Below, piece by piece: positions 34,539 to 54,507 of a DNA stretch of 64,000 nucleotides. Position numbers and translations under genes: made by a program. Location: assembly GCF_055900595.2 (NCBI RefSeq), contig NZ_CM148325.1; one strand, 5' to 3'. The notes beneath the pieces are model-generated. The model was given only the letters and a program-made list of their open reading frames with translations, was not told where the DNA came from and did not search any database. Position 1 is the first letter of the stretch, and every line of letters begins with the position of its first letter.

Positions 34539-35906
34539 TTAATAAAATAGCGTGATTGTGGCAATCATATTCACCACGAAACCGACTGCCATGGGGATCG
34601 CTGTCCGCTTCACCACTGCAAAAGGCGAAACACCTGCAATTCCTGATGTAACGACCACCACCGCAGTAATCGGCGAAACAGCGCGCGCTAGCGTCGTGGC
34701 AAAATGCATCGGCATAATCATTACAACCGCAGGTACATGTAGTCCGGCTGCGATATTCGGAATAAGACTGGCAAATGACATAAATGGCGCATTGCCTGAG
34801 CCCATCACAATGGCACAAATGGCAATGACCAGCGCCATAATAATCATCACGCCAATACCGCCCAGACCAGAATGCTCCGCACCCCTGATAACCGCATCGA
34901 CAGTGCCAATTGTCGTTAAGCCCTTCGCAAATATTTCACCCGCGACCACCAGCGTTACCACGTTGGCAAACTGCGTACCCATGCCGTCAAAAAACGCCTG
35001 CACATCGTCCATTGTTTCGCGCAAATTATGCTTGCGGAAAAACTCAACAAACATCGTCACCGTCAAACTCAGTAACATCACCACCACCAGATGCAGTTCT
35101 GACTGCATCAGTCCAGCGTGGGCGAGGAACAGCGAGCCGAGCATCAGGATTAACGGCATCACCGGTAAAATGGCGTAATAAAGCGGTGGGACATTATCGA
35201 GAGCTTTTTGCTCCGCCTGCTCGTGATTGATATTTTTATCTTTTTTGTCAAAAGCGCGTTGCACGAAAAAGTGAGAGATCGCTACCGAGATAATGACGCA
35301 AGAGGCGACCGGAAGCTGGTAGTGGAAGAAGTAAGTGGCAATTTTCATTCCTGCCACCTGGGCCGCAAAAATAGAGTTCGTTTCCAGAATCCCCCACTCA
35401 ATGGACATCGTGGTTGCGATAACTGCCACCGCAGAGAGTCGACTTACTCCCAGACTCACCAGTGTCGGAAATAAGGTGACCATCAGCAACATACCCAGAC
35501 CGGAGGCGCTGGTAATAAACTGCGCCATGATTTGGCCGATGACGTAAGTTGCCGACAGAATAATATACGGCGAGCGAATGAGTTTTAACGGGCGGCTTAA
35601 CAAGCTCACCATCGCCCGACTGGCTCCTATGCGCTCCATGTAGCGGGCATACCCGCCCACCGCCATAATCGACAACCCTAACCCGGCAATGCGGTTGGAC
35701 AGCATGCGCAGGATTTCATTATAAATATCGACGATCAAGTAGCCGCTGCTTTGGGTGGGATCGAGTACTCCACCGAACCCTAACCAGACACCGCACATCA
35801 TCAGGAAGATACCTGCGGCAGCCAGCACCACTTGAGGTTTGTAGTTTTTCAGGATCAAATAGCCCATCGTCATTAATACGATGACAGATATAATTATGCC
35901 GAACAT
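34539..35906 (-). CDS. dcuD: Anaerobic C4-dicarboxylate transporter DcuD (DcuC family)
   Basis: 455 aa from [37 protein letters not shown]...; polytopic membrane protein. Confidence 0.9.
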
Positions 35907-36284
35907 TGTTGAACTCCGTGTCAAAAGAAAACGGTCAATCCCATAAACGGCAGATTGAAAACAGTGATGTTATATTTTTTGCAAGGCTATTTATGGTGTT
36001 GGTGTCGTATTTTTTAATTCTGGATGAGGCAATTTTTCATTATAAAATATGCATTTATGATTATTTTGTAAGAACATATTCGTAATATTCATAATGCTTG
36101 TGAATAGTCTTATGAATAATTCATTCAGGATGTTTTATCGGCGTTACACTAATTTTCGCAATAGTTAATTATTACGTTAATTATGATAATAATGAGACAC
36201 AAAGAGAAAAAACCGCCATTTCCCCCTACTTTCAATCCTGTGATAGGATGTCACTGATGATGTTAATCACACTGACCTTACAGA

Positions 36285-37076
36285 ATGGGCCTTATGAACG
36301 CATTTGATTCGCAAACCGAAGATTCTTCACCTGCAATTGGTCGCAACTTGCGTAGCCGCCCGCTGGCGCGTAAGAAACTCTCCGAAATGGTGGAAGAAGA
36401 GCTGGAACAGATGATCCGCCGCCGTGAATTTGGCGAAGGTGAACAATTACCGTCTGAACGCGAACTGATGGCGTTCTTTAACGTCGGGCGTCCTTCTGTG
36501 CGCGAAGCGCTGGCAGCGTTAAAACGCAAAGGTCTGGTGCAAATAAACAACGGCGAACGTGCCCGCGTCTCGCGTCCTTCAGCGGACACCATCATCGGCG
36601 AGCTTTCCGGCATGGCGAAAGATTTCCTTTCTCATCCTGGCGGAATTGCCCATTTCGAACAATTACGTCTGTTCTTTGAATCCAGCCTGGTGCGCTATGC
36701 GGCTGAACACGCCACCGATGAGCAAATCGATTTGCTGGCAAAAGCACTGGAAATCAACAGTCAGTCGCTTGATAACAACGCGGCATTCATTCGTTCAGAC
36801 GTTGATTTCCACCGCGTGCTGGCGGAGATCCCCGGTAACCCAATCTTCATGGCGATCCATGTTGCCCTGCTCGATTGGCTGATCGCCGCGCGCCCAACGG
36901 TAGCTGATCAGGCTCTGCATGAGCATAACAACGTTAGCTATCAACAGCATATTGCGATCGTTGACGCGATCCGTCGTCATGATCCTGACGAAGCCGATCG
37001 CGCGTTGCAATCGCATCTCAACAGCGTCTCTGCTACCTGGCACGCCTTCGGTCAGACCACCAACAAAAAGAAATAA
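36285..37076 (+). CDS. nanR: Sialic acid regulon repressor NanR (GntR/FadR family)
   Basis: 263 aa with an N-terminal GntR helix-turn-helix. It lies immediately upstream of the nan operator and nanA. Confidence 0.93.
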
Positions 37077-37139
37077 TGCCACTTTAGTGAAGCAGATCGC
37101 ATTATAAGCTTTCTGTATGGGGTGTTGCTTAATTGATCT

Positions 37140-37162
37140 GGTATAACAGGTATAAAGGTATA
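37140..37162 (+). promoter_or_regulatory. NanR operator: three direct GGTATA repeats of the nanA promoter region
   Basis: GGTATAACAGGTATAAAGGTATA, i.e. GGTATA three times at 11-bp spacing, the known NanR binding repeat. Confidence 0.8.
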
Positions 37163-37176
37163 TCGTTTATCAGACA

Positions 37177-37185
37177 AGCATCACT
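37177..37185. repeat. IS10 target-site duplication, left copy
   Basis: AGCATCACT immediately outside the IS10 outside end; identical to the 9 bp at 38515-38523. Confidence 0.9.
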
Positions 37186-37230
37186 CTGATGAATCCCCTA
37201 ATGATTTTGGTAAAAATCATTAAGTTAAGG

Positions 37231-37300
37231 TGGATACACATCTTGTCATATGATCAAATGGTTTCGCCAAAAATCAATAATCAGACAACAAAATGTGCGA
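37231..37300 (-). ncRNA. IS10 antisense RNA-OUT (from pOUT); position inferred from the canonical IS10 map
   Basis: In canonical IS10, pOUT fires outward from about element position 115 and RNA-OUT ends near position 46. These are mapped onto the window by offset; no independent signal was checked. A dam GATC site at the pIN -10 region (CATATGATCAAATGG) is present. Confidence 0.45.
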
Positions 37301-38501
37301 ACTCGATATTTTACACGACTCTCTTTACCAATTCTGCCCCGAATTACACTTAAAACGACTCAACAGCTTAACGTTGGCTTGCCACGCCTTACTTGACTGT
37401 AAAACTCTCACTCTTACCGAACTTGGCCGTAACCTGCCAACCAAAGCGAGAACAAAACATAACATCAAACGAATCGACCGATTGTTAGGTAATCGTCACC
37501 TCCACAAAGAGCGACTCGCTGTATACCGTTGGCATGCTAGCTTTATCTGTTCGGGCAATACGATGCCCATTGTACTTGTTGACTGGTCTGATATCCGTGA
37601 GCAAAAACGGCTTATGGTATTGCGAGCTTCAGTCGCACTACACGGTCGTTCTGTTACTCTTTATGAGAAAGCGTTCCCGCTTTCAGAGCAATGTTCAAAG
37701 AAAGCTCATGACCAATTTCTAGCCGACCTTGCGAGCATTCTACCGAGTAACACCACACCGCTCATTGTCAGTGATGCTGGCTTTAAAGTGCCATGGTATA
37801 AATCCGTTGAGAAGCTGGGTTGGTACTGGTTAAGTCGAGTAAGAGGAAAAGTACAATATGCAGACCTAGGAGCGGAAAACTGGAAACCTATCAGCAACTT
37901 ACATGATATGTCATCTAGTCACTCAAAGACTTTAGGCTATAAGAGGCTGACTAAAAGCAATCCAATCTCATGCCAAATTCTATTGTATAAATCTCGCTCT
38001 AAAGGCCGAAAAAATCAGCGCTCGACACGGACTCATTGTCACCACCCGTCACCTAAAATCTACTCAGCGTCGGCAAAGGAGCCATGGATTCTAGCAACTA
38101 ACTTACCTGTTGAAATTCGAACACCCAAACAACTTGTTAATATCTATTCGAAGCGAATGCAGATTGAAGAAACCTTCCGAGACTTGAAAAGTCCTGCCTA
38201 CGGACTAGGCCTACGCCATAGCCGAACGAGCAGCTCAGAGCGTTTTGATATCATGCTGCTAATCGCCCTGATGCTTCAACTAACATGTTGGCTTGCGGGC
38301 GTTCATGCTCAGAAACAAGGTTGGGACAAGCACTTCCAGGCTAACACAGTCAGAAATCGAAACGTACTCTCAACAGTTCGCTTAGGCATGGAAGTTTTGC
38401 GGCATTCTGGCTACACAATAACAAGGGAAGACTCACTCGTGGCTGCAACCCTGCTTACTCAAAATCTATTCACACATGGTTACGTTTTGGGGAAATTATG
38501 A
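37293..38501 (+). CDS. IS10 transposase
   Basis: 402 aa, [151 protein letters not shown]..., recognised as the IS10/Tn10 transposase. Full length with no frameshift. Confidence 0.97.
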
Positions 38502-38514
38502 GGGGATCTCTCAG

Positions 38515-38523
38515 AGCATCACT
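38515..38523. repeat. IS10 target-site duplication, right copy
   Basis: AGCATCACT, identical to 37177-37185. Confidence 0.9.
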
Positions 38524-38535
38524 TCAGAGGTATTT

Positions 38536-39429
38536 ATGGCAACGAATTTACGTGGCGTAATGGCCGCACTCCTGACTCCTTTTGATCAACAACAAGCACT
38601 GGATAAAGCGAGTCTGCGTCGCCTGGTTCAGTTCAATATTCAGCAGGGCATCGACGGTTTATACGTGGGTGGTTCTACCGGCGAAGCCTTTGTACAAAGC
38701 CTTTCCGAGCGTGAACAGGTACTGGAAATCGTCGCCGAAGAGGCGAAAGGCAAGATTAAACTCATCGCCCACGTCGGTTGCGTCAGCACTGCTGAAAGCC
38801 AACAACTTGCGGCATCGGCTAAACGTTATGGCTTCGATGCCGTCTCCGCTGTCACGCCGTTCTACTATCCTTTCAGCTTTGAAGAACACTGCGATCACTA
38901 TCGGGCAATTATTGATTCGGCGGATGGTTTGCCGATGGTGGTGTACAACATTCCGGCGTTAAGCGGCGTTAAACTGACCCTGGATCAGATTAACACTCTG
39001 GTTAAGTTGCCTGGTGTCGGCGCGCTGAAACAGACCTCTGGCGATCTCTATCAGATGGAGCAGATCCGTCGTGAACATCCGGATCTGGTGCTCTATAACG
39101 GTTACGACGAAATCTTTGCTTCTGGTTTGTTGGCGGGCGCTGATGGTGGTATCGGCAGTACTTACAACATCATGGGCTGGCGTTATCAGGGTATCGTGAA
39201 GGCGCTGAAAGAAGGCGATATCCAGACCGCGCAGAAGCTGCAAACCGAATGTAATAAAGTCATTGATTTACTGATCAAAACGGGCGTATTCCGCGGCCTG
39301 AAAACGGTCCTGCACTATATGGATGTCGTTTCTGTGCCGCTGTGCCGCAAACCGTTTGGTCCGGTCGATGAAAAATATCTGCCAGAACTGAAGGCGCTAG
39401 CCCAGCAGTTGATGCAAGAGCGCGGGTGA
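38536..39429 (+). CDS. nanA: N-acetylneuraminate lyase
   Basis: 297 aa from [52 protein letters not shown].... The six-frame ORF's extra 20 N-terminal codons run into the IS10 inside end. Confidence 0.96.
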
Positions 39430-54395: not shown

Positions 54396-54507
54396 CCCCG
54401 GCTAGACCGGGGTGCGCGAATACTGCGCCAACACCAGGGAAATCTTGGCTGCGCCGTAAATTTTTATGATGAGTTACAAGGGCACAGCACTTTTTTTCAG
54501 GCCGCAC
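54386..54507 (-). ncRNA. arcZ: sRNA ArcZ (RyhA/SraH), convergent with and overlapping the arcB 3' end
   Basis: The minus strand reads GTGCGGCCTGAAAAAAAGTGCTGTGCCCTTGTAACTCATCAT...GGCGCAGTATTCGCGCACCCCGGTCTAGCCGGGGTCATTTTTTT, matching the ArcZ sequence and its terminator as I recall them. Confidence 0.85.

Follow-up and report, generated by a model that had tools for sequence, protein, structure and literature searches.

The 64,000-nucleotide stretch of DNA analysed here (the window) carries a complete IS10 element between the sialic acid repressor gene nanR and the N-acetylneuraminate lyase gene nanA. We consider it probable that this copy represents a recent, strain-private hop into the nanA leader, whose effect on nanR is small and whose main effect is the uncoupling of nanATEK. 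The order of the locus is nanR, (GGTATA)3 operator, IS10 and nanA (Table 1). Both the insertion and the antisense mechanism considered below are of known kinds, and read-through from the outward-facing IS10 promoter pOUT has been known since 1982–83.

By all the defining features tested, namely size, ends, duplication, transposase, RNA-OUT and promoters, the element is an ordinary IS10. It shares with the IS10 of Tn10 the length of 1,329 bp, the terminal repeats, the 9-bp duplication, the 402-residue transposase, pIN with its Dam site, pOUT and RNA-OUT. The terminal repeats begin with CTGATGAATCCCC at the outside end and close with GGGGATCTCTCAG at the inside end, and the two ends form distinct imperfect repeats, CTGATGAATCCCCTAATGATTTT outside and, read as the reverse complement, CTGAGAGATCCCCTCATAATTTC inside. 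The duplicated 9-mer fits the relaxed IS10 target consensus NPuCNN-NGPyN, as quoted in PMC4574204, at three of its four specified positions. The transposase is encoded as a single intact protein of the IS4-family DDE type, as assigned by the NCBIfam model. The element was compared base by base with the IS10-Left and IS10-Right copies of Tn10 on plasmid R100. It differs from IS10-Left at 4 of 1,329 positions, all located in nt 24–47, and from IS10-Right at 11 of 1,329, located at nt 83, at nt 107 and from nt 410 onward to nt 1300. Unlike the IS10 of Tn10, the window copy is a mosaic, with Right-type alleles in nt 1–47 and Left-type alleles in nt 83–1300, and its position in the nanA leader was seen nowhere else in the collections searched. 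The segments nt 48–82, containing pIN, and nt 108–409, including pOUT, have the same bases as R100 IS10-Right. The same mosaic variant occurs with 100% identity in enteroaggregative (EAEC) E. coli 55989 and in one other human isolate, plasmid-borne IS10 copies are 99.9% identical to it, and near-full-length IS10 copies are present in 1,173 of 5,426 complete E. coli genomes. The combination of an IS10-Left-like body with a Right-like outside end seems to circulate naturally.

Table 1. Features of the IS10-interrupted nan regulatory region (window coordinates; IS nt, nucleotide position within IS10)
Feature	Position	Strand	Remarks
nanR, GntR-family sialic acid repressor, intact	36285..37076	+	NanR model 408.9 bits, cut-off 260
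A/U-rich inverted repeat, arms 37073-79 / 37099-105, 19-nt loop	37073..37105	-	-13.9 kcal/mol, z = -2.8
C-rich, G-poor stretch of the putative read-through RNA	37086..37163	-	20 C, 8 G in 78 nt
NanR operator, (GGTATA)3 at 37140, 37149 and 37157	37140..37162	+	between IS10 outside end and nanR
9-bp target-site duplication, left copy, AGCATCACT	37177..37185		flanks IS10
IS10-type insertion sequence, complete	37186..38514	+	1,329 bp; PGAP name ISVsa5 family
Outside-end terminal inverted repeat, IS nt 1-23	37186..37208	+	same as IS10-Right
IHF-consensus-like AATCATTAAGTTA, IS nt 30-42	37215..37227	+	sequence match
pIN region	37231..37266	+	-35-like TGGATA 37231-37236, -10 TCAAAT 37254-37259, RNA-IN +1 37266
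RNA-OUT, 69 nt, IS nt 115 to 47	37232..37300	-	+1 at 37300, 3' end 37232
Dam site GATC	37252-37255		overlaps pIN -10 TCAAAT
IS10 transposase gene, intact, 402 aa	37293..38501	+	NF033591 402.4 bits, cut-off 152
pOUT -10 hexamer TAAAAT	37308..37313	-	7 nt upstream of RNA-OUT start
IS nt 1000-1230, reported pIII + OUTIIp segment	38185..38415	+	identical to IS10-Right and IS10-Left
9-bp target-site duplication, right copy, AGCATCACT	38515..38523		flanks IS10
nanA, N-acetylneuraminate lyase, intact	38536..39429	+	571.8 bits, cut-off 382

The insertion is private to this lineage or genome. The nanR/IS10 junction is absent from the 5,426 complete E. coli genomes, and the exact 28-mer spanning it is absent from the GTDB species representatives and the metagenome contigs. 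The empty site was rebuilt in silico by deleting IS10 together with one copy of the repeat, and the resulting 800-bp sequence was searched. This sequence is 100% identical to annotated nanR–nanA loci, occurs with 100% identity in eight genomes and is uninterrupted in 5,408 of the 5,426 E. coli genomes. Rightward of IS10, 25 kb match the same eight empty-site genomes with 100.0% identity. In strain 100117, the counterpart of 36010–63523 is identical except for IS10, and a position-by-position comparison revealed no difference from 36010 to IS10 or in the 3 kb after it. The complete identity of the flanks to eight genomes with an empty site indicates that the insertion is very recent. An allele seen nowhere else, whether among E. 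coli genomes, GTDB representatives or metagenome contigs, would also be expected if the insertion were not natural, that is, if IS10 had hopped during laboratory passage or cloning or if the assembly were wrong. IS10 does jump in laboratory hosts and in cloned DNA (PMC4574204, PMC11481808), and a hop may have taken place during laboratory culture of the isolate itself. However, the variant corresponds to neither Tn10 copy of R100 and is 100% identical to natural copies such as that of EAEC 55989, in a species in which near-full-length elements are common. Furthermore, the perfect 9-bp duplication around a full-length element marks the event as a true transposition rather than a misassembly. 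With a natural circulating variant and a perfect duplication, a cloning-host or assembly artefact was rejected as unlikely, and we regard a non-natural origin in general as extremely improbable.

The sequence to the left of the nan locus has a different relationship to these genomes. Between 12186 and 36010, the window differs by about 1% (252 substitutions) from strain 100117 and seven sister genomes. The sharp shift from this level of difference to the identity that extends, IS10 excepted, to 63523 suggests a recombination breakpoint at about 36010, in the dcuD–nanR intergenic region beside nanR. The adjacent gene for a DcuD-like C4-dicarboxylate transporter (34539–35924, minus strand) is an intact open reading frame of 461 codons in the window; in the closely related strain 100117, its counterpart carries an internal stop and is annotated as a pseudogene.

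IS10 sits in the 5′ leader of nanA, downstream of an intact promoter and operator, where the transcription start of nanA is taken from secondary descriptions. The operator, defined as in PMC8012715 and PMC3658417, lies about 23 bp from the outside end of IS10, with the element on its downstream side. The stop codon of nanR (TAA, 37074–37076) is 109 bp from the outside end. On the other side, nanA starts 21 nt past the inside end and keeps its own Shine-Dalgarno motif GAGG. nanR has the same sequence as in strain 100117, and nanR, the operator, nanA and the rest of the nan operon all read as wild-type; the change consists of 1,338 bp added between the nanA promoter/operator and nanA. The first-pass annotation had placed the transposase in the left-to-right direction with the outside end towards a nanR stop about 110 bp away, and the open reading frame, the end repeats, the minus-strand RNA-OUT and the measured distance all agree with this layout. 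Its description of the nanA promoter as disrupted is imprecise. With the operator located outside the end of IS10, between pOUT and nanR, the insertion leaves both promoter and operator intact and uncouples them from nanA. For annotation, the appropriate entry is a nan regulatory region interrupted by IS10 in which nanR, operator and nanA are intact; the locus should not be entered as a novel regulatory element. The nanA regulatory spacer also contains Dam GATC sites at 37095 and 37135, near the Dam site of the pIN −10 element at 37252.

The control module at the outside end is complete. The interval 37186–37300, which corresponds exactly to IS10 nt 1–115, had been described as holding both pIN and pOUT; pIN and RNA-OUT do lie within it, whereas the −10 hexamer of pOUT is found just to its right. 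A motif resembling the IHF consensus, AATCATTAAGTTA, is also present as a putative IHF site of the element. RNA-OUT is matched by Rfam RF00240 from 37300 to 37231 on the minus strand over model positions 1–70 of 70, with a score of 97.3 bits against a gathering score of 41 (E = 4.9e-19), far beyond chance. The start codon of the transposase, at 37293, falls within the RNA-OUT span. The arrangement of pIN agrees with Fig. 1 of PMC5006887, in which the 3′ end of RNA-OUT is IS nt 47 and the 69-nt RNA-OUT is the main product of pOUT. Because of the mosaic make-up of the element, RNA-OUT carries G33 and U9. Its predicted fold is the canonical stem-loop at −21.3 kcal/mol, compared with −23.9 kcal/mol for IS10-Right, the weaker value resulting from U at nt 9, which converts a C-G stem pair into a U.G pair. 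This pair could alter the stability of RNA-OUT and might thereby raise or lower read-through. The two Left-type changes are located within the overlap of RNA-IN and RNA-OUT, and the two RNAs stay perfectly complementary. The core of pOUT is the same as in IS10-Right, and the determinants of activity of the textbook promoter are thus present unchanged. The promoters were recognized by identity to the reference IS10 and not by a consensus scan. Such a scan of 36800–38700 returned zero sigma-70-like sites and was dropped as a test of presence, since it missed the real pIN and pOUT; this failure marks the promoter and terminator scans as insensitive. Neither a scan nor visual inspection revealed a hybrid outward promoter where the outside end joins the flanking DNA. 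By analogy with the literature on the identical sequence, pOUT would be active, and some of its transcripts would leave the element.

To reach the stop codon of nanR, an antisense RNA from pOUT would have to extend over at least 225 nt, from 37300 to 37076. The scans, with the insensitivity noted above, called no canonical intrinsic terminator on the minus strand from 37231 to 36567. The outside end does contain a 12-bp A/U hairpin on this strand (37196–37225, −10.4 kcal/mol, z = −3.1). This hairpin, together with the description of RNA-OUT as ending at nt 47 (PMC5006887), would fit a situation in which all pOUT RNA stops near IS nt 47 or at the hairpin, no antisense RNA leaves IS10 and nanR is unaffected. 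However, a U-run is missing after both the RNA-OUT stem and the outside-end hairpin. Moreover, activation of adjacent genes by pOUT is long established, from Ciampi 1982 and Simons 1983, as relayed by citing papers, to acrEF in Olliver 2005, as given in PMC9330008. In the same source, Simons 1983 is cited for pOUT transcripts that run into neighbouring DNA at about 10% of the level of lacUV5, and PMC11774165 describes IS10 pOUT as lacking a strong terminator and yielding read-through products of several lengths. We consider a complete stop inside the element unlikely.

Outside IS10, several features of the path may reduce read-through. One is the NanR operator. Three NanR dimers bind it cooperatively with nanomolar affinity (PMC8012715), and it is plausible that this complex forms a roadblock to transcription from pOUT. 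Another is the nanA promoter, which converges on pOUT and whose activity rises up to 1000-fold with sialic acid (PMC3658417). There is also the C-rich stretch between 37163 and 37086, whose C/G ratio of 2.5 places it among the highest 0.43% of all 78-nt segments of the 64-kb window. It contains no open reading frame with a ribosome-binding site, and its composition suggests a candidate Rho loading site. A further one is the inverted repeat that spans the nanR stop codon, followed on the minus strand by UUCUUUUUGUU (37072–37062). We rejected it as a terminator capable of blocking the antisense RNA, given its 7-bp A/U stem, its 19-nt loop and the lack of a call by the scans; from its predicted fold it would terminate read-through weakly at most. 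On the plus strand, it folds no better than shuffled sequence (z = −0.42), and a convincing intrinsic terminator is lacking for nanR itself. The segment 37062–37105 is native E. coli sequence; its minus strand holds a T-run and its plus strand a less pronounced T-rich stretch, and it may act as a weak bidirectional terminator.

These features lead to the mechanism that we favour. pOUT would fire constitutively leftward, with the stable 69-nt RNA-OUT ending at 37232 as most of its product. A minority of the transcripts would exit IS10, cross the nanA promoter and operator in the antisense direction and reach the last ~100–200 nt of nanR. The exited RNA would be untranslated, and because it is untranslated and includes a C-rich, G-poor segment, Rho would probably terminate it within roughly the last 100–200 nt of nanR. 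Operator-bound NanR and polymerase from the convergent nanA promoter would cut the antisense RNA further. Owing to Rho, bound NanR and the convergent promoter, the expected net effect on NanR is small. Low-level antisense RNA at the 3′ end of nanR is plausible in view of the intact pOUT, the lack of a convincing terminator and the published exit of pOUT transcripts, and on balance some antisense RNA would be expected over the extreme 3′ end. The proposal in the first-pass annotation, that read-through of RNA-OUT would run antisense into this end, thus finds partial support. The orientation, the complete RNA-OUT, the pOUT identical to that of IS10-Right and the absence of a canonical terminator in the scanned path speak for it, whereas the operator, the convergent promoter, the C-rich stretch and the weak hairpin in the path speak against it.

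Comparison with known cases helps to place this layout. The published examples of pOUT activation involve the same promoter sequence, the same end facing outward and no strong terminator in the path. In the classic examples, a co-directional neighbour is switched on, whereas nanR is convergent to pOUT, so that any read-through is antisense. An IS10 copy located between a promoter and its open reading frame has been described in cat vectors (PMC4574204); there the outside end and pOUT face the gene, the opposite of the orientation in the nanA leader. A closer counterpart is Rfi2, an antisense RNA driven by Pout of IS481 that represses fim2 in Bordetella pertussis (PMC11774165); an IS481 transcriptome study relates to the same IS-borne antisense repression of convergent neighbours (PMC6161684). 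The two layouts share an outward antisense-control promoter inside the insertion sequence and a convergent neighbour, here with pOUT (minus strand, start 37300) facing nanR (plus strand, stop 37076). The Rfi2 layout lacks a terminator; between pOUT and nanR, the insensitive scans called no canonical one, and the path holds the weak hairpin with its U-run and the rut-like stretch. Rfi2 belongs to another IS family and another host and was demonstrated by northern blotting and dRNA-seq with its effect measured; the IS10–nanR case is a prediction from sequence. In addition, Rfi2 overlaps its target directly, whereas the nanR stop lies 224 nt from the pOUT start, with the repressor-bound operator and the convergent promoter in between. 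If true, antisense transcription into nanR would add one more member to the known class of outward IS promoters acting antisense to their neighbours, and it would raise no new question.

A larger effect would result if antisense RNA from pOUT lowered NanR, either because polymerases collide or because RNase III cleaves the sense/antisense duplex, rewiring both arms of nan regulation and partly derepressing nanCMS, yjhBC/nanXY and fimB. The intact pOUT without a strong terminator, the published read-through at about 10% of lacUV5 (PMC9330008) and the direct precedent of Rfi2 acting on fim2 (PMC11774165) are all consistent with this outcome. NanR regulation is lost on multicopy reporters, suggesting that the repressor is limiting (bioRxiv 10.1101/2024.10.23.619804), in which case modest drops in NanR could matter. 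Against it, the overlap with nanR would not begin until 224 nt from the pOUT start, and the path holds an operator occupied by NanR, the convergent nanA promoter, a rut-like stretch and a weak hairpin with a U-run. The bulk of the pOUT product is the 69-nt RNA-OUT (PMC5006887), and the locus bears no sign of selection, with a private allele and a nanR identical to that of its relatives. We judge NanR-lowering antisense with rewiring of both arms to be quite unlikely. Any physiologically meaningful change in NanR is likewise improbable, with a probability that is not negligible given that NanR seems to be limiting. A more elaborate possibility is a loop gated by NanR itself, in which bound NanR blocks pOUT, low or sialic-acid-released NanR permits more antisense RNA and hence still less NanR, and nanATEK is expressed constitutively, without regard to NanR, from the inside-end promoters of IS10. 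Such a loop would constitute a positive-feedback switch with a rewired sialoregulon (nanCMS, nanXY and fimB altered) and a natural E. coli case in which an antisense promoter carried by an insertion sequence regulates a transcription factor; we consider it very improbable.

Under the favoured reading, a recent hop with a small effect on nanR, the consequences fall mainly on the nanA side. The main predicted consequence of the insertion is the separation of nanATEK-yhcH from its NanR/CRP-controlled promoter. Two promoters reading out of the inside end, pIII and OUTIIp, have been reported in IS nt 1000–1230 (PMC11481808), and this segment now points at nanA. nanATEK-yhcH would be left with the weak pIII/OUTIIp and with any transcription that persists through the 1.3 kb of IS10. 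RNAs started at the nanA promoter would enter IS10 at the outside end, where fold-back pairing would sequester the start of the transposase gene. In the predicted folds of such read-in RNAs (start at 37150 or 37165), IS nt ~52–63 pair with the region around the transposase start; native RNA-IN, which begins at 37266, is predicted to leave this start open. This pairing agrees, at the level of structure prediction, with the fold-back protection of IS10 from external promoters reported by Davis, Simons and Kleckner in 1985, as cited in PMC13181058. In the present case, the external promoter is the strongly inducible nanA promoter, ~25–45 bp outside IS10. With the 1.2-kb transposase frame untranslated on the read-in RNAs, strong polarity on nanA is predicted. 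The most likely phenotype, as far as the sequence permits a prediction, is a loss of NanR/CRP-controlled induction combined with low constitutive expression of nanATEK-yhcH. The insertion would most likely explain any altered use of sialic acid by the strain; sialic acid use bears on gut colonisation.

Two further features of the window were observed. An ATG at 38476 in the inside end of IS10 is in frame with nanA, with no stop codon between them (38476–38538); NanA with a 20-residue N-terminal extension is formally encoded from this ATG, which no ribosome-binding site precedes. Farther to the right, the small RNA ArcZ is encoded at 54400–54507 on the minus strand, with a full-length Rfam match of 118.7 bits against a gathering score of 66.
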